A stretch of DNA of 63,955 bases, the filler included. It is 9 parts of 9 records of this genome, joined end to end, with 100 filler letters (N's around TTAATTAATTAA, not from the genome) between each part and the next. Parts side by side here need not be neighbours in the genome. Positions count along the whole stretch, not along the records: positions 58,822 to 63,955 come from SRR31147125_72300; 8 more parts are not named here. One strand, given 5' to 3'. Made by a program: the position numbers and the translations under genes. Positions 7,311 to 63,955 of this stretch are shown in pieces. Positions within the stretch are counted from its first letter, which is position 1, and the number at the start of each line of letters is the position of its first letter. The notes below the pieces were generated by a model, which was not told the DNA's origin, ran no database searches, and was given only the letters and a program-made list of their open reading frames with translations.

Positions 7311-7410
7311 NNNNNNNNNNNNNNNNNNNNNNNNNNNNNNNNNNNNNNNNNNNNTTAATTAATTAANNNNNNNNNNNNNNNNNNNNNNNNNNNNNNNNNN
7401 NNNNNNNNNN
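7311..7410. other. Artificial contig spacer (N run with TTAATTAATTAA). The same spacer occurs at 19307-19406, 26461-26560, 32360-32459, 40693-40792, 47081-47180, 53081-53180 and 58722-58821.
   Basis: Identical 100-nt structure with stops in all six frames; genes are truncated and base composition changes across each spacer. Confidence 0.98.
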
Positions 7411-19291: not shown

Positions 19292-19484
19292 CGTCATCCT
19301 CACTTCNNNNNNNNNNNNNNNNNNNNNNNNNNNNNNNNNNNNNNNNNNNNTTAATTAATTAANNNNNNNNNNNNNNNNNNNNNNNNNNNNNNNNNNNNNN
19401 NNNNNNAAATTGATATCAATCGTTTCATTAAATCTACCCTTAGATATTATTGTACCGACGTAATGCATTGCGTCGATACGATTT

Positions 19485-26300: not shown

Positions 26301-26839
26301 TGTGATGAATAATTAATAAGAACTACTAATAATTAGAAACAATTTATTTTAACAAAATCAACAGAGATATGCCATGGCAATTCTTTACTTATATCTTTCA
26401 CTTTAATTGCATCACTCTGTAGCGTAATCCAACAAAGAAAGTTCAATAAAAAAAGAGCTCNNNNNNNNNNNNNNNNNNNNNNNNNNNNNNNNNNNNNNNN
26501 NNNNTTAATTAATTAANNNNNNNNNNNNNNNNNNNNNNNNNNNNNNNNNNNNNNNNNNNNAAATAAACTCTCAGACAACTATACTCATTATGAACAATTA
26601 AGGTTTCAAAAGAGTTATTAATAACAAAATAGGCAATTTTATGGACAATAGCAATTGAAAATGGCAACTGGAACCCATGTTAGCCGGACCCTGCAAAAGT
26701 GTACTTTACCGTCGAGAAAGACTGCGTTGCTTTGCAGAAAAGACTCACTATTTTTAGTTTTTTTGATTCAAAATGCATTATATGAGAATAAAATCTCGGA
26801 AAACAGGGAGTTTATTATGTTGAATACAACACTTATCCG

Positions 26840-32359: not shown

Positions 32360-32495
32360 NNNNNNNNNNNNNNNNNNNNNNNNNNNNNNNNNNNNNNNNN
32401 NNNTTAATTAATTAANNNNNNNNNNNNNNNNNNNNNNNNNNNNNNNNNNNNNNNNNNNNAAAAAATTGGATTTGAATGTAGAAAGAGAGATTAAC

Positions 32496-40610: not shown

Positions 40611-40792
40611 TTAAAAGAATTTTAAAATATAGTGCCTTGCTTTTACTGATGGTATTCATTGCAGCCATTGCTTATGGTTCCTATTTATTTTTNNNNNNNN
40701 NNNNNNNNNNNNNNNNNNNNNNNNNNNNNNNNNNNNTTAATTAATTAANNNNNNNNNNNNNNNNNNNNNNNNNNNNNNNNNNNNNNNNNNNN

Positions 40793-47031: not shown

Positions 47032-47180
47032 TTCTCCCTGAGGTAAAGTTTTTTCCTTTCCCGATGAAAAGGCTTATTTCNNNNNNNNNNNNNNNNNNNN
47101 NNNNNNNNNNNNNNNNNNNNNNNNTTAATTAATTAANNNNNNNNNNNNNNNNNNNNNNNNNNNNNNNNNNNNNNNNNNNN

Positions 47181-52995: not shown

Positions 52996-53180
52996 GATTA
53001 GCTCTTTCTTTTTTGCATTGGAACAACAATTTCCAAATTCATGGATCGAATTAAACTACTCCCCATCCTTAGACAACCATNNNNNNNNNNNNNNNNNNNN
53101 NNNNNNNNNNNNNNNNNNNNNNNNTTAATTAATTAANNNNNNNNNNNNNNNNNNNNNNNNNNNNNNNNNNNNNNNNNNNN

Positions 53181-53700: not shown

Positions 53701-56586
53701 TTATTTTTCCACAATCAGCTTGAGAATGCTTTTCCTCTTCCAGATTAACGCTCCGAACAAGAACCAAAGAACAAAGGTTGTGAGTAGTGCATTGTTGCCA
53801 TATATCGCTACAAGTCCGGTATTGTTACAGTCACTTGGCTCATAATCGTAATCTACTTTGAAATCGTAATTGCCGCAATTGCCACTTTTGTAGTCAACTA
53901 CCGCAAAGAAAATTTGTCCGGTGTTGCTGGCAGGAATTTCCATATCGATATAGTTTCCGCTTCCCTGATAATCAAAGCAGCTATTAGGATTATTGCAATC
54001 ACTAAGGAAGTACATGGCTTCATATTGAATTGAATCTCCAGGTGGGTACAAACTAACTCTCATATCATTTCCAGCTATTGCCTTGATAGCGTAGATGTTG
54101 TCCTGACCTGTTGTCTGGTCACTGGTTGCGCTACAACCATTAGCCCTGTAATCGTTTCCTGCGCCACATGTTGTTCTGCTGTTATAACGTGTGTTCCTTG
54201 TTATAAGATTATTTAGTGCATTTGCGCATTTTCCTGAAATGCAGCTTCCATTATAGCAGGCTTGACTTGATGAACATTTGCTGAAGCATCCGCCACAGTG
54301 ATCCTTATTTGTATTTGGGTCAACGCATTTGTTATCACAGCAAATTTTACCAGCATCGCATCCACCAGCACAGTTGCAATCGCTATCTTGCAAATCCGTT
54401 TTTCCATCGCAATCGTTATCTTTTGTGTCGTCACAAACTTCCGCTTTGCCTGGGTTAATATCTGGATCGCTGTCGTCACAATCAGTACCACCTTGGCATT
54501 GATCGTCATAGAAATAATCGTTATCTGTATCTTTGATTACTTTGTATAGGCAGTTCTTTTCTGTATCGCAGTAATCGCCGGTGCAGTCATTGTGGTCATC
54601 GCAAAGTGAATGATCCTGAGTATTGAAGCATCCATCGGCAGGCGAACATGTATCTACCGTACAAGCGATCGAATCATTGCAGTTAAGTGGAGGGCCATCT
54701 TTGCAGACTCCACCCACGCAAGTTTCTGTTCCATTGCAGAGGTTTCCATCTGCGCAATCCGCATTTGTGACACATTTGGGTGGTTCTACACAGTCTTTAT
54801 CAGGATCACAAATGAGTCCTGAACTACAATTTGTATCATCTGCATTATAGGCACAACCTGAACTTGTTACACAAATGTCATTTGTGCAACCGACACTATC
54901 ATCACATTTGCTGTTATCGGCTGCATGTTGACAGTTAAATTTCGGAGAGCATGTGTCTGTTGTGCAAGGATAGTCATCTTTGCAGTAGTCGTGATTTGGT
55001 GTGGAAACACATCCGTTTGATGCAATCTCGCAAACATCTACAGTACATGGGACGAGATCGTCGCAGAATGTGTTATCTTCTACATTCTGACAATCTTTCT
55101 TAGCATTACATGAATCGATTGTACAATTGATTCCATCATCACATCTTTCATCGTTCGGTTCGTTGACGCAGCCTTTTACTGGGTCGCATGTATCTGCTGT
55201 ACATTTGATGTTATCATTGCAGCTTAGTTTCGTTCCCGGTTGACAACCGCCTGTAATATGGCAAGTCTCTATACCAGTGCATACATCATTGTCCGAGCAT
55301 TCTTCATCAAGAGGAGTATGTACGCATTTATTGGTAGACTCATCGCAGGAATCGCTAGTACAAGTTACTTTGTCGTCGCAATCCGGAGGTGTTCCCTGAG
55401 CGCAATACGCTCCATCGCATGTTTCTTCTCCATTGCACCACAATCCATCATCACATTGTGCATTGGTTTGACATTCTTCTTTTGGAGCGCATCCTGTAGT
55501 TGCATCGTGTTTGGATGATGCAGGATTGCATACATTGTCTCCGGTGCACTGAGAATGGTCAGGCTTGAATTCGCAACCGTTTGCGGCAGTACAGACATCG
55601 TTTGTGCAGCTAAAATCATCTTTACATTGCGAGTTGTCCAAAGTTAATAAACAGCCCAGATCTTTATCACAATATTCTTTTGTGCATGCTTTGCCATCAT
55701 CTGCGCATTTGGTGTTGTCGACTGTATAAACACAACCTTTTTCTGTGATGTCACATACATCACTTGTGCAATCGATTTTATCATCACAAAGTGTATTCTT
55801 GGCTTCATTTACACAACCGGAGAATTCTACACAAGTGTCTTCTGTGCAAGGTATGCCATCTTCGCAATCAGGGGCAATACCAGGTTGGCAACCTTGAACC
55901 TGATCGCAATATTCATTTCCGTTGCAAGGATCTGAATCTGTGCAAAGTGTATGGTTGGTTGTGTGATCGCAAGTGTTTTTTTGCTCATCACAGGTATCAT
56001 CTGTGCAATCTACATTATCGTTGCATGGATTTTCACCATATTGGCAGATTCCGTTGGAGCCACATGTTTCTTTACCATCACAATATAGGCCGTTATTGCA
56101 GTCGGAATCATACTCGCATGTTTTGCCTGTGGATTTATCCTCTTCTTCTTCTGCTACGTTATCTGTATCCCCATCAACTGGAGGTGTCGTTGTATCAGTT
56201 TCGGTTTCCGGTTTATCAAGATCGAAATCGGTTTCAACTTGAGTGTCACCATCGGTCACAGGAGTTGTAGTGTCTCCATCAGGAGTGGTTGTATCCGGGA
56301 CACACATAGTTCCTTCGCATTTATAGCCGTCAGGACAACCACCTTGCATAAAGCATCCATCTTCCTGATTTTCGGATGTTATTGTATCACCATCAAGGTT
56401 TAGTGGTGGTTTGTCGTTAGGATTATATACGTCTTCCTCACAAACTCCATTAATACAAGTTTGACCGGAAGGGCAATCCGAGTTTGAGATACAGTTGATC
56501 TGTTTGATTCCACCGGACTTGTCATCGCAAGCAGACAGAACAAAAATACAAACAAGCAACATAACTATAGAATAATACTTACGCAT
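53701..56586 (-). CDS. Large cysteine-rich repeat surface lipoprotein
   Basis: LSAC lipobox; DGD/Thr-rich linker; many CDDxxxCTxDxC repeats; DCDDSDPDINPGKAEVCD..DNDCDG motif; C-terminal Cys + TM + basic tail. Confidence 0.88.
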   Translation of the reverse strand: MRKYYSIVMLLVCIFVLSACDDKSGGIKQINCISNSDCPSGQTCINGVCEEDVYNPNDKPPLNLDGDTITSENQEDGCFMQGGCPDGYKCEGTMCVPDTTTPDGDTTTPVTDGDTQVETDFDLDKPETETDTTTPPVDGDTDNVAEEEEDKSTGKTCEYDSDCNNGLYCDGKETCGSNGICQYGENPCNDNVDCTDDTCDEQKNTCDHTTNHTLCTDSDPCNGNEYCDQVQGCQPGIAPDCEDGIPCTEDTCVEFSGCVNEAKNTLCDDKIDCTSDVCDITEKGCVYTVDNTKCADDGKACTKEYCDKDLGCLLTLDNSQCKDDFSCTNDVCTAANGCEFKPDHSQCTGDNVCNPASSKHDATTGCAPKEECQTNAQCDDGLWCNGEETCDGAYCAQGTPPDCDDKVTCTSDSCDESTNKCVHTPLDEECSDNDVCTGIETCHITGGCQPGTKLSCNDNIKCTADTCDPVKGCVNEPNDERCDDGINCTIDSCNAKKDCQNVEDNTFCDDLVPCTVDVCEIASNGCVSTPNHDYCKDDYPCTTDTCSPKFNCQHAADNSKCDDSVGCTNDICVTSSGCAYNADDTNCSSGLICDPDKDCVEPPKCVTNADCADGNLCNGTETCVGGVCKDGPPLNCNDSIACTVDTCSPADGCFNTQDHSLCDDHNDCTGDYCDTEKNCLYKVIKDTDNDYFYDDQCQGGTDCDDSDPDINPGKAEVCDDTKDNDCDGKTDLQDSDCNCAGGCDAGKICCDNKCVDPNTNKDHCGGCFSKCSSSQACYNGSCISGKCANALNNLITRNTRYNSRTTCGAGNDYRANGCSATSDQTTGQDNIYAIKAIAGNDMRVSLYPPGDSIQYEAMYFLSDCNNPNSCFDYQGSGNYIDMEIPASNTGQIFFAVVDYKSGNCGNYDFKVDYDYEPSDCNNTGLVAIYGNNALLTTFVLWFLFGALIWKRKSILKLIVEK

Positions 56587-56783
56587 GATCATTTCTCCTG
56601 AAATGACTGAGTCCAAAGAAAAAATATACTCCGTGTACGAGTTCCAAGATGTTAAATATATAATGCTACACGTATATTTGGCAACCTTTTTCTTGTCATT
56701 GGCGAGTTACGAAAAACGAGGGAAATTCTTGATATTGTAAAAGAAATCCTCTTGACGCAATGCGCCAACATAAGTTCCTGTAA

Positions 56784-58721: not shown

Positions 58722-58821
58722 NNNNNNNNNNNNNNNNNNNNNNNNNNNNNNNNNNNNNNNNNNNNTTAATTAATTAANNNNNNNNNNNNNNNNNNNNNNN
58801 NNNNNNNNNNNNNNNNNNNNN

Positions 58822-61800
58822 GGGGATCGTCTTGCTCTGTACCTCGATGGAGATCTTGCAACGGAAGACGACGTAACCCCAACGTCCATCCTCTGGAAGC
58901 AGGCAGAGACAACCATGACGATTGGTGGCCAGTCGTCAGGAAAAAGCCATACCTTTGAAGGGGATCTCGATGATGTGCGTGTATACAAAGCGGCTCTGAC
59001 GCAGGAACAAGTCAATGCCGTACGCACTCTCCGTGAGAATGCATCCTGGCGAACCGTGGTGGCGAGTGTGCAGGGAAGTCTCACCGTGAACAACCTTAAA
59101 CCCAACACGGATTACACGTTCGCCGTTGTAGCCCATACTTCCCTGGGAACATCAGATATCGGTATGTGCCCTGTGCAATGCATTCGTCCCTCCACTCACT
59201 TCACTCCCAGTGTTCTCTACTAGTGCACGTACATCTGCAAAAACCATCCTTGCCAATCCATCCTTTGAATTGGATGATGGGACATGGACGGGTATTGGAA
59301 GTGGATTTCACTGGGAGGAGGGGCACAAGCACGCGCTGGCCAACGTTGTGCCCGAGTGCGTAGTGTCATTGATATGTGTTCGTTTACATATTCCTTTCTC
59401 ATGGGAGGCCCTTCATTCAGATAACCAATGAAGATGGAGCAACAGGATCACGAGGGGTGCGGAGTACAGTGTTCCTAAATCAAGGTGCACGAGCAGCTGT
59501 TGTGATCAAGGCCTTTGCAAAGGCCGACGGCGTGGAGGGAGAGGATAATGAGGACGACTATGCACTCGCTTGCGATTTCGAATACACCGATGAATCGACG
59601 GAGACAGGAGGAAGAATAGCCTTTGGTGCAAGTTCCCGTGATTGGGAGGCAAGAACTCTTGTGTTGCACCCCAGGAAACCAATTCTCCGTGTGATCATCA
59701 TGCTTCTCTTCCAGAACCGGCGAGGAACAGTGTACTTTGATCAAGTGGACGTGCGAGAGGATACGGCAATTCCCGTACTCACCACATGTCGTGCCGTGGG
59801 AGATCCACACATTCGCACGTTTGATGGATTGCGATACGATTTCCAGGGGGCTGGAGAGTACTGGCTCGTCAAGTCTCTTCATTCGTCCTTTGCTGTCCAG
59901 GCTCGACTAGGAAAATCGGGAAGTGCATTTTCCATTGTGACGGCTGTGGCAATTTCGGGAACGGGCGGCACACGTATGAGCCTCTCTACCTCCGGAGCGC
60001 ATCCTGTGGTCAAGATTGATGGACTCCTCCAGACCCTGAGCAGCGATACACGTATAACAAGGGCCGATGGTACTATATCCGTCCGTGGAACACTTTGGAC
60101 AGATAATCTGAGTTATGTGTACTACGATGTGGTGGGAATGCAAGTGGAGCTGCGTGTACGGACAGGAACAAGTGGACAACTGTACATTCAAGTATTTGTC
60201 TCGATTCCCGTCGATGCGCCACACAATGCAGTGAATGGTTTGTGTGGAAGTGCAGATGGGAATACGGCAAACGATTTGATGCCTCGAGGAGGGCAAAATG
60301 CTATTTCAATACATGAACGCACCTACGAGAATCTCTACGATTCATTTGGTGATAGCTGGCGGCTTGTGCACGATACAGGGGAGTCCTTGTTTGACTATGA
60401 ACCTGGAGAAACAACGGACACGTTTACAGATCGGGCCTATCCTGGGTCTATGCTCACACCAGAGGATTTCGACGATGGTCAACGCGCAGTGGCGGTGGCG
60501 ATTTGCACAGAGCGAGGCGCTTCATCTAACACCCTTCGCGCGTGTGTCCTTGATCTTCTTGGGACTCTCGACACTACGTTGGCTGTGGGCAATATTGAAT
60601 CAGAGAGCGCTGGAGGTGCGTGTGTGTGGATAGTGTTCTTTGTTGTCTGATGGCTCTGATGGCTCTGATGACTCCGTACACAGAATGTCCGAATCGACGA
60701 ACAGATGTGGGGAAATCATACGTGTGTTATCACACAGGAAATGGGCGGTTCAGGCTTATTCAAGCTACTCTGACGTTGTTGTGGAAGTACCTTGGACGAG
60801 GAGGCTTCTTGCCGAACACTCGAGCCCCAGACGGCTTTCTATACGATTGTGAGTGTGAGTGTAAGCCAGATACCAACAACGAACGCGAAATCTTGGCAAA
60901 TCCCACCATGGAGACATTGGATGGTAATCTTGTTGCGGATTGGCAACAGTATGAAAGTGGATACTCCATCACGGTGCAGGACTTTCGTGGCACAGCATCG
61001 GTTCAGGTTATCGCGGTCACGAATGCAGAACAAACGGATAAGCGTGGTGCAGCACAATTAGTGATGATGGATCGTGAGGATGTATTTCCCTTGCGTGTAT
61101 CGGGATGGTCAGCAGCCCAATTAGTTTCAGGTGTGTCTGACTATCATTATTCCATCTATGTCGATGTGTTCTACAAGGACGGGACCAAATTGTACGGTCA
61201 ACATGCACCTTTTTCCGTGGGTTCGCACGATTGGGAACGTGTCGAGTTCACGATCAAGCCAACTCAACCAATTGACTTTGTTTGGGTGTATTGTCTCTTC
61301 CGAAACCACCAAGGTATTGCCTACTTCAAGAATGTAAGCATGAAGGAAATTGTGAGTCAGGACGACGATGACGACGGTGATGAGGCTGAGGATGACAACA
61401 GGCGATGGCAACGGAGATTGCATACGAGAACGACTAGCAGTGAAGGCAACCTTGTGCAAAATGGATTCTTTCATACTCCCGGCTATGATGGGTCTCAGCC
61501 ACTGCAGCACTGGCGTGCCGTGGGAACTGGTTATGAGCGCTCCATTGAGACACGAGGGAATTCATCGTCTTCGTATTCCGTCACCATGGGAGCTGTTGGG
61601 TTTGAGGATGTGACTGGGGCGACGCAAGAGGTGATACTGGAGCAGACGACTGCGGCTCCATTGTTTGTGAGCGCCTGGAGTCGAGCAGAAGCTGTGTCTG
61701 ACAATGGAGAACCAGAAGACTACTCTGTGTTATTGGATGTGGAGTATGTAACAAGAGAACGAGACTGGTCTTTTTTCTTGCCGTTCTGTTCAGGAAACCA

Positions 61801-63664
61801 CGATTTTGAGCTTGCCAAAGGGATATTCACGCCAATTCTACCGATTCGTACGGTCAATGTGTATCTGACATTCCGTGGGAGGGAGGGAGTGGTCTGGTTC
61901 GATGATATCTGGGTTGGATATGAGGAAGATCCGGAGGCCATCCCTGTCACGACGTCTTCCTCCTCTCTGGATGATGACCCAATCACGACTCTACAGAATC
62001 CGTCTTTCGAAGTGTTAGAAACGGAAGACTTAAGTTTCCCCTCCTATTGGTTGTTCACCTCTACGGGATGTTCTGTGTCCACAACCACCGCACGTACAGG
62101 GTCCAATAGTCTGGCTTGTACAGGAACCGGAATGGTTCAACAGACGATCAGTATTGATCAGGTTTCCATGCCACCTATTCGAATAGGGGTCTTCGGAAAG
62201 GCGGATTCCGTGGAAGGATCACAGGATAGCACATTTAGTCTCAGTGTGAACGTTACATACTCTGATGGAACAAGAGAAGATGCCGTGAATGCGTCGTTCT
62301 GCACCGGAACACATGAGTGGGAGTTTGTCTCCGTCGTTGTGAGTGGCGAGGATGATCGATTCTTGTCCAAGATCACAATTGCCTTGGTATTTCAGGGATC
62401 TGTGGGGCGTGTGTGGTTTGATGATGTCTCTTTTTCTGCGGAGCCATCCTATCGTTTGCCGTTGACCTATCCGTCTGCTCGTCCCGGTGGTTACGGTGAT
62501 GACACAACGGATGCTGATGCACGATCTATTTGGCGTGATCGTGAGGTGTGCCGACGCAATTTGGAAGGGGAATGGGGTTCGGGGAGTTATGTCGCCCCCG
62601 AGCTCAATGCTTCCGAGCCCCATCCGAATGGGGCGGTCACCGATCACCCTACGAACATGACACTTGAGGATTTGTTCGCGGAGGCAACGAATCTCCATTT
62701 CAGGGGAGGACAACGGGCATTAACAGGAGATCTGGCTGGGGCACAAAGTTTGTGGGCCGAGGCACGAGGTTGCTTCACAGCAATCAGCGGTACATCACGG
62801 AGTGCCTCCTTCTGGGGTCTCTCAGGTCTTTCTATGGAGCACTATCCATCTGAGGAATTGTACACAACTCTGGCCTTTGAGGACACCTATCCCTTCCCCG
62901 GCGATGGAGACTACAACGATGCTGTCTTTGCTTTCGAGGCTTCCTCTTGGTTTGATGCCTCTCAGCACCTTGCACAAGTTGATATCACCGTAACAATTTT
63001 GGCACGCGGGAGCATGGCAGATCACGAGCTGGTGTTGCACTTCACGAGACCCATTGCAGGTGGGGCCAGCGTTATCATTTGGCGTTTCGATGAGAACGGG
63101 GTGTTGGAGTCGGTTTATTCGCTGGATACTGTTCCTGGAAACACGTTTACGGAGATCCCCTTGTGTGACAGTTCTGTGAATGCTCTGTCCTCTTTGGTAA
63201 GCAACTCAGATAACGAAACTCTCCTCGAGGGTTATGCAAACGTTTGGACAGATGCGTCACCTCGGGCCGTGGGTCATCGTACAGAAGTATCCATTATTCC
63301 ACACGACCGCACACTTCATCTCAGGGGTCTTCGACTGGAAGGAATGGAATCCACAGACGATTCTCTGTCCCCGCCCTTTGATCCCGTCCTCCGTATTCGA
63401 GGAAGTGGACAAGCCGTTCATGTGCAAGAGGTAACAGGAAACGCTGCGGATGCCTGGGTGGACGATCACCCATATCCATTTGGAATTCTTGTTCCTGGAG
63501 TGTGGAAGTGGCCTCTGGAGGGTGTGCATGTCACATCGGTGTATCCAACCTTTGGTTTTGCATCCACGGGGCATCCTTCATCGGAATGGTGGACCAACAC
63601 GAATCCAGAGTGTGTCACCACGGCGACGGGTGTTGCTGTGTGTCCTGGGGTGTATGATCAATGA
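58822..63664 (+). CDS. Eukaryotic multi-exon gene (5' truncated): LamG-like, FN3, CBM-like repeats, VWD and LruC/DUF4842 domains
   Basis: Four ORFs join in frame via GT-AG introns 59162-59210, 59356-59407 (or 59360-59420) and 60616-60683, with a possible in-frame intron at 60722-60787. Motifs: FEGDLDDVRVY, LKPNTDYTFAV, GDPHIRTFDG, GLCG, TLAFEDTYP..GDGDYND, WKWPLEG. Confidence 0.8.
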
Positions 63665-63673
63665 ACCTTCATT

Positions 63674-63694
63674 TCTCTCTCTCTCTCTCTCTCT
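63674..63694. repeat. (CT)n microsatellite in the intergenic spacer
   Basis: TCTCTCTCTCTCTCTCTCTCT. Confidence 0.85.
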
Positions 63695-63699
63695 TACAA

Positions 63700-63955
63700 A
63701 TGGGCGATAGTCCACCGCCAAGAGACGCAGAGGAAGAGGAGACGGAGGTGATCGTACTTGAGGATGAAGAGGAAGAGGGTGATGAAGTGGAGGAAGAAGG
63801 AGAGGAAGGGGAAGAGACGGAAGACGACTCTCTCCAAGCGTTTCTCGGACACAATGGTGCGTGCGGGTGGGCGAGTCTGTGGGAGGACAGGTGAGTTCAC
63901 CGTTCACTCCAACAGGAGAGGTGTACTGCGTGTGTCTCCATCCGACATTGGGGTT
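63700..63955 (+). CDS. AAMP/Sqt1-like WD40 protein, 5' part, with intron 63857-63915
   Basis: Spliced product MGDSPPPRDAEEEETEVIVLEDEEEE...EDDSLQAFLGHNGEVYCVCLHPT, resembling the acidic N-terminus and first WD repeat of AAMP/Sqt1. Donor GTGCGT, acceptor CAG. Confidence 0.75.

Follow-up and report, generated by a model that had tools for sequence, protein, structure and literature searches.

An intron-bearing eukaryotic gene whose product is predicted to end in a LruC/DUF4842 domain known from bacteria

The stretch of DNA analysed here (the window; 63,955 nucleotides, filler included) is composed of nine separate contigs, the last of which (58822–63955; 5,134 bp, GC 0.513; from SRR31147125_72300) carries the 3′ part of a large gene. 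The gene contains short GT..AG introns, and two such introns of the contig are observed spliced, indicating that the gene is eukaryotic. The spliced reading frame on the contig comprises about 1,553 codons (taking the 68-nt option for intron 3) and encodes, in order, Laminin_G_3, fn3, a carbohydrate-binding module (CBM)-like repeat, VWD with GDPH, three more CBM-like repeats, and a C-terminal LruC domain. On profile and model comparisons, the C-terminus is a genuine, intact member of the LruC family. The contig probably represents the 3′ part of a nuclear gene from a poorly sampled microbial eukaryote, and the gene would encode an extracellular multi-lectin protein built as a mosaic of bacterial-type modules. 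A single reading frame with this domain order had been proposed in the original prediction, and the Pfam and NCBIfam matches, together with the presence of all of its quoted motifs in the translation, confirm that order.

Two public sequencing runs of one sample (X1 and X2) contain 26–29% of the words of the contig, with no RNA run listed as containing it, and all 18 aligned pieces of the two runs are at least 99% alike to it. The gene and its product are organized as listed.

58822..59161, plus strand: exon 1, 5′-truncated; end of Laminin_G_3, then fn3 (Pfam)
59162..59210, plus strand: putative intron 1, 49 nt, GTATGT...CCCAG; a GT..AG pair that brings the fn3 and CBM-like frames together
59211..59355, plus strand: exon 2; N-terminal third of CBM-like repeat 1; one G short after 59319
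59356..59420, plus strand: intron 2, 65 nt, GTGCGT...TTCAG; spliced out in an X1 contig
59421..60615, plus strand: exon 3; remainder of CBM-like repeat 1 (to ~59756), VWD (59787–60293) with GDPH, and a conserved C-terminal extension
60616..60683 (favoured), plus strand: putative intron 3, donor GTGCGT at 60616; 68 nt, with alternatives up to 254 nt
60684 (or later)..63664, plus strand: exon 4, intron-free; possible Cys-rich linker, CBM-like repeats 2–4, low-confidence linker, LruC, stop
60884–61345, plus strand: CBM-like repeat 2; 186 bits with the repeat profile
61445–61918, plus strand: CBM-like repeat 3; 151 bits
61982–62437, plus strand: CBM-like repeat 4; 142 bits
~62831–63661, plus strand: LruC/DUF4842 core; E-D...G-D-x-D-Y-N-D acidic motif and C-terminal YPFGILVP..W.WPLEG..YPTF..WW
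63662–63664, plus strand: stop codon of the large gene

The three introns of the gene lie in its first 1.9 kb, and exon 4 is a single open reading frame (ORF) that leaves the final 2.8–3.0 kb uninterrupted, as predicted originally. In an X1 contig, 59355 is followed directly by 59421, with GT..AG ends, indicating that the true donor of intron 2 is 59356; an X2 contig over 59247–59404 keeps the intron. Two of the four introns proposed on the contig (intron 2 and the intron of the next gene) are thus observed spliced, both in X1, and the most fitting reading of the spliced X1 contigs is that they are cDNA-like. For introns 1 and 3, the placement is by inference: no spliced read or contig of X1 or X2 covers 59162–59210, and no contig of either run bridges intron 3. 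Among the nine in-frame acceptors of intron 3, the one at 60683 is likely, and the resulting 68 nt agrees with the lengths of the other introns (49, 65, and 59 nt). GTGCGT is the donor in three of the four.

Exon 2 needs one correction. In the G-run at 59316–59323 of the window, X1 and X2 contigs alike have one more G, placed behind 59319. With the extra G, exon 2 reads ...AQARAGQRCARITNED, which fits the pattern of the CBM-like repeats; without it, the frame of exon 2 clashes with the observed donor at 59356. Because the extra G in both runs and the observed donor together restore the pattern of repeat 1, the window has a one-base error or variant in the G-run.

The domain calls derive from Pfam and NCBIfam profile scans of the translated ORFs, judged against curated cut-offs. 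The LruC_dom profile (TIGR04456) matches the C-terminus in two stretches with 61.9 bits against a cut-off of 36 (E 1.1e-16). DUF4842 (PF16130) matches with 26.7–30 bits against a cut-off of 22 (E 7e-7), aligning over profile positions 159–208 of 208 only, whereas bacterial matches align over 1–208. In alignment A1 (58 sequences), the contig protein keeps all six invariant columns (E112, D120, D122, N124, D125, and W348). The smaller alignment A2 covers the full domain and displays the family motifs (FED..P..GDxD[YF]ND, ARG, H, N, P..W.WP.E..Y..F..W); the contig protein is itself a row in both alignments. Searched against the PDB, the LruC profile finds 3oqq (BACOVA_00967) with E 1.6e-14, a match made by the profile only, as phmmer with a single LruC sequence finds nothing there. 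The predicted model of the domain has a mean pLDDT (predicted local distance difference test) of 73.5, with a core at 90 or above and a disordered stretch of 95 residues at the start. Foldseek superimposes the model on 3oqq with E 1.9e-10, probability 1.00, and template modelling (TM) scores of 0.49/0.45, and 3oqq is the sole match at E <= 0.001. The assignment of the C-terminal signature to LruC/DUF4842, first made from the sequence alone, is thereby supported by curated profile, PDB profile, and predicted fold, the same three comparisons that relate the contig domain to the bacterial proteins LruC and LIC13086 of Leptospira and BACOVA_00967 of Bacteroides ovatus.

The contig protein keeps the acidic and the C-terminal aromatic motifs of these bacterial proteins, and differs from them in its setting. 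Bacterial LruC lipoproteins have an N-terminal lipoprotein signal and a length of ~430–570 aa, whereas the contig domain is the last part of a protein that is encoded by a spliced gene and is longer than 1,550 aa, with no lipobox in the available part. The contig protein is a member of the LruC domain family, not of its lipoprotein subgroup. Lipobox-like L-x-x-C N-termini are present in three of the seven closest LruC relatives in alignment A2.

The relatives of the LruC domain are bacterial wherever they are named, as the original prediction had assumed. A HMMER search of 1.84 billion cluster representatives (of ~15 billion public proteins) finds 454 relatives at E <= 0.001, 41 at E <= 1e-10, and none at E <= 1e-30; the nearest are ~26–34% identical. 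Eight of 20 LruC clusters looked up have names, all 'LruC domain-containing protein', and the clusters with an organism belong to Cysteiniphilum, Fibrobacterales, and Myxococcota. Pfam scans of 37 of the 150 best relatives find DUF4842 in each, alone or with DUF4114, Big, SdrD_B, cadherin, TSP3_bac, or similar domains; the partners are prokaryote-type or none in all 37, and VWD is present in none of the 37. A scan of GTDB with alignment A2 finds at least 76 loci, bacterial throughout among the matches listed, and the best of those listed are from marine-type Gammaproteobacteria (29–32% identity). The ESM Atlas returns DUF4842 clusters for 27 of 30 matches, with taxa given as Bacteria except for one half-viral cluster; a query that includes the linker returns no usable match. 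A word-indexed search with the LruC region, which covers near lengths only, finds nothing, and a scan of JGI metagenome contigs with exon 4 gives 597 pattern matches and no relatives. A scan of IMG/VR with the LruC alignment gives 79 pattern matches and no relatives; a giant-virus source is therefore unsupported.

One LruC relative stands apart in its partners. P0024 (1,204 aa, encoded on a single Logan contig) has TSP1_ADAMTS, DUF4215, and TSP3_bac repeats beside its DUF4842. It may be of bacterial or of eukaryotic origin, and is a possible second eukaryotic LruC protein.

Upstream of LruC, the VWD and the CBM-like repeats have nearest relatives of bacterial type as well. Laminin_G_3 (PF13385) matches with 41.6 bits against a cut-off of 27.6 (E 1.8e-10) over profile positions 92–151 of 151, the match being partial because the contig begins within the domain. 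The fn3 match (PF00041) is borderline, with 26 bits against a cut-off of 25 (E 1e-5). VWD (PF00094) is matched over its full length (profile positions 1–155 of 156) with 57.1 bits against a cut-off of 22.9 (E 3.4e-15) and carries CxxxGDPHxxTFDG, with GDPH at residue 127 of exon 3; C8 and TIL domains are not found next to it in the Pfam and NCBIfam scans. With its full-length match and its GDPH motif, the module resembles the GDPH-type VWD of mucins, zonadhesin, and RGM and of bacterial RHS and surface proteins. The 39 longer relatives of the VWD are 25–37% identical and keep GDPH in 27 cases; their other domains are RHS, SBBP, cadherin, or S8. The nearest are bacterial-type proteins (30–37% identity), with the best matches in proteins that have RHS or SBBP and in Hyalangium; the named ones include Hyalangium minutum, and the sole named eukaryote is fish zonadhesin, the weakest match (E 2e-5).

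The four CBM-like repeats are mutually homologous (24.5–28% identity, 38–53 bits). A profile built from repeats 2–4 and their relatives identifies exactly four copies in the protein, including repeat 1, which was absent from the training set and scores 106.9 bits. CBM_4_9 (PF02018) does not reach its cut-off: one repeat attains 15.5 bits against 25.9 (E 0.023), and the other repeats give no match. The AlphaFold model of repeat 2 (pLDDT 96.2) is matched by Foldseek with probability 1.00 and a TM score of ~0.7 to jelly-rolls that include 4d0q, CBM16, CBM22, CBM4-2, CBM61, and Fbs1 sugar-binding domains; the list of fold matches for the module also names CBM70, with CBM16/22/4. The proposal of four such repeats therefore holds as to homology and, in the predicted model, as to jelly-roll fold, but not as to membership of CBM_4_9, and we call the repeats CBM-like by fold only. 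They have 30 related proteins, the best being P0158 (E 6.9e-62, 38% identity to repeat 2), and the named ones are proteins from metagenome-assembled genomes (MAGs) of Armatimonadota, Verrucomicrobiales, and Kofleriaceae.

These related proteins (P0158–P0187) appear to form an undescribed bacterial family of secreted proteins, with lengths of about 800–1,200 aa. Over all members, they are ~630–1,470 aa long, mostly without a precomputed Pfam domain, and carry one or two N-terminal copies of the jelly-roll module at 31–46% identity to repeat 2. Most of them share a large conserved C-terminal domain with the consensus GIWMPFTD...EDFGF, LDGEYLDS, and GTET (alignment A3), which is absent from the contig protein; VWD and LruC, in turn, are absent from the family. 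The few members with a named organism are bacterial MAG proteins.

Since CBM-like and VWD modules also have bacterial-type nearest relatives, the protein is better described as a eukaryotic mosaic of bacterial-type modules than as one with a single foreign tail; the description of a eukaryotic protein with a single bacterial domain was in this respect misleading. The architecture is new and its parts are known. In none of the 226 relatives fetched do two of these three module types (CBM-like, VWD, and LruC) occur together, in line with the original remark that the architecture was unfamiliar. Likewise, VWD and CBM-like modules are not seen as partners of bacterial LruC, either in the 37 proteins scanned with Pfam or in the 157 proteins of the LruC set tested with the CBM-like profile and the VWD query. 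The same counts bear on the reading that the whole gene, or its 3-kb last exon with three CBM-like repeats and LruC, was acquired whole from a bacterium and gained its 5′ introns later. Bacterial-type nearest relatives for every module and the intron-free last 2.8–3.0 kb would fit such an event, which we nevertheless consider improbable: no fetched relative has the combination, the best relatives of the three modules are from different phyla, and repeat 1, a paralogue of repeats 2–4, sits in the intron-bearing part.

The product would be a very large extracellular protein composed only of binding and spacer modules, with a flexible linker before the LruC β-sandwich. From its domain content, the protein would be secreted or held at the cell surface. 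The four CBM-like modules may confer multivalent glycan binding. By comparison with mucins and RGM, in which autocleavage takes place at GDPH, the VWD may cut itself at GD|PH or serve in multimerisation. LruC would serve as the terminal adhesion module, probably in a Ca2+-dependent manner through the acidic E-D/D-x-D-x-N-D cluster, a role modelled on bacterial LruC surface lipoproteins and on the related DUF4114 mannose-binding domain of Acanthamoeba mannose-binding protein (AcMBP). The most likely function is that of a multi-lectin protein for adhesion, secreted by an unsampled protist or exposed on its surface; the role of an adhesin or of a prey-capture protein, put forward in the original prediction, is an inference only.

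Published work offers two points of comparison. Leptospira LIC13086 is reported to lie in the outer membrane and to interact with components of the host, with DUF4842 as an Ig-like β-barrel, and the organisms listed with DUF4842 in that paper are all bacterial (PMC8280789). DUF4842 is also found at the C-terminus of bacterial ice-binding proteins (PMC9957290), and both the work on LIC13086 and our 37 scanned relatives indicate that LruC is often the terminal module of bacterial surface proteins (PMC8280789), as it is in the contig protein. The second comparison is with proteins of amoebae and giant viruses that carry DUF4114 (PF13448). DUF4114 has been shown experimentally to be the mannose-binding domain of AcMBP (PMC11934332), and Vermamoeba has 18 DUF4114 genes (PMC7125106). 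AcMBP and the contig protein have in common a eukaryotic surface setting (predicted for the latter) and a β-sandwich lectin domain or its candidate, and the FED...GDxDYND motif is common to DUF4114 and the start of LruC. The contig domain, however, is LruC and not DUF4114, and Cys-rich repeats and a transmembrane helix are absent from the available part of the protein.

Several observations weigh against our reading, as regards both the origin of the LruC domain and the function of the protein. The libraries searched consist mostly of prokaryotic and metagenomic proteins, few of them named, and the GTDB scan is that of a single peptide pattern. The best-scoring LruC relative (E 4.8e-23) is only 34% identical. 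Two trees were built, by FastTree with 221 rows and by IQ-TREE with a mixture model and 70 rows, the latter after removal of L067 and L074 (very long branches) and of five loci with <70% of the domain filled. In both trees, the contig protein lies on a branch of 1.5–1.9 changes per site and in no starred clade; the starred clade of Gammaproteobacteria excludes it, and it groups weakly with a second long branch, a pairing that carries a long-branch warning. The call for a phylogeny of the LruC domain has thus been answered with trees, but not with a supported placement. From these comparisons, bacterial ancestry of the domain is not demonstrated, and neither a donor nor a recent transfer can be claimed.

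As regards function, no signal peptide or anchor is visible, because the 5′ end is missing. The Ca2+ site is deduced from the acidic motif, not from a metal-bound structure. DUF4114 is below its cut-off in the contig protein (22 bits against 27) and aligns over profile positions 60–84 only; the analogy with a lectin is loose because this match is confined to the shared motif. We know of no ligand for any LruC domain. In addition, the cDNA status of the spliced X1 contigs is not formally proven, because the library kind of X1 is a guess ('DNA?').

The same observations on origin favour the reading that LruC is an old module, vertically inherited or widely shared among under-sampled protists, and that its bacterial look is a database effect. 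In accordance with that reading, no close donor is found among the 1.84 billion representatives, the LruC branch is long and unplaced, base composition is uniform along the gene, the related DUF4114 has a firm place in both Amoebozoa and giant viruses (PMC11934332, PMC7125106), and the other modules also match bacteria best, pointing to database bias or a common pool. On the other hand, no eukaryotic LruC protein is present among the named relatives, the titles and abstracts of the DUF4842 and LruC-domain literature found refer to bacteria only, and all 37 scanned relatives have prokaryote-type partner domains or none, with the origin of P0024 unsettled. We regard the vertical reading as unlikely, though clearly less so than acquisition of the gene or its last exon in one piece. 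For the LruC module, an origin from bacteria, long ago, is most likely, and its transfer is plausible but unproven. The original prediction is thus supported in part: a bacterial-type domain does reside in a eukaryotic gene, but its transfer from bacteria to a protist is not shown, as no donor is identified, the branch is long and unsupported, identities of the nearest relatives are 29–34%, and composition by codon position is uniform.

An assembly chimera, with a bacterial LruC fragment fused to eukaryotic DNA, was also weighed, given that the assembly is mixed, that the other eight contigs are bacterial, and that 62434–62605 is covered in neither run, so that one junction relies on ORF continuity and composition alone. 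The bins covered by neither X1 nor X2 are 60198–60369, 60714–61229, and 62434–62605, and such gaps are not informative. Against a chimera, an X2 contig (63616–63766) runs from the end of LruC across the 35-nt spacer into the next gene, itself intron-bearing, and X1, the run with spliced forms, covers pieces of LruC (62649–62854 and 63424–63663) at depths like those of other exons. The ORF is continuous, the GC content at third codon positions is 0.46–0.54 in all gene segments, and correlations of relative synonymous codon usage are alike between segments. Furthermore, the intron-split repeat 1 is a paralogue of repeats 2–4, which are in the same ORF as LruC, and no plausible contaminant source is on record, because the best-scoring bacterial protein is only 34% identical. 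A chimera at the junctions, named originally as what might overturn the prediction, is therefore highly improbable.

The surroundings of the gene are as follows.

63700..63955, plus strand: start of the next gene, 35 nt past the stop; acidic N-terminus, then a WD-repeat-like start
63857–63915, plus strand: intron of the next gene, 59 nt; spliced out in X1 (joint 63855->63915, GT..AG, cut +1)
7311–7410, 19307–19406, 26461–26560, 32360–32459, 40693–40792, 47081–47180, 53081–53180, and 58722–58821: spacers between contigs, artificial joins

The next gene has 65 codons on the contig, and its product may resemble an AAMP/Sqt1-type WD-repeat protein. The 35 nt at 63665–63699, between the stop of the large gene and the next ATG on the same strand, are mostly a (TC)n run. 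For a eukaryote, two genes this close together are very tightly spaced, and with such a gap the untranslated regions must overlap or be tiny.

The nine contigs of the window range in GC from 0.38 to 0.54 and are joined by N44-TTAATTAATTAA-N44 spacers, so adjacency across any spacer is meaningless. Position 58822 is the first base past the last spacer (which ends at 58821), and the gene is truncated at its 5′ end because this is a contig boundary. The remaining eight contigs are bacterial, with long ORFs for aldehyde ferredoxin oxidoreductase, pyruvate formate-lyase, LysR, AraC, HipA, and an amylase with a type IX secretion system (T9SS) sorting tail. The contig 58822–63955 is co-assembled with these bacterial contigs and, because they carry typical bacterial genes, is the lone eukaryotic contig of a mixed assembly. 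The adjoining low-GC bacterial contig contains a 1,001-aa ORF on the minus strand (53704–56706) with no Pfam match at E <= 1e-5.

With a conserved LruC domain in a multi-lectin protein encoded by a spliced protist gene, the family would reach beyond bacteria, and the company of four CBM-fold modules, LamG, and VWD supports a role in adhesion or glycan binding for LruC in general. A bolder proposal, which we put forward tentatively and with somewhat less than even confidence, is that this is the first eukaryotic LruC protein, a giant adhesin assembled wholly from modules of different bacteria (CBM-like, GDPH-type VWD, and LruC) to which introns were added later. If true, it would show clearly a eukaryote building a prey- or substrate-binding protein from the parts of bacterial adhesins. 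The effect on larger questions is limited. The protein would also add an example of protist extracellular proteins made from bacterial-type modules.

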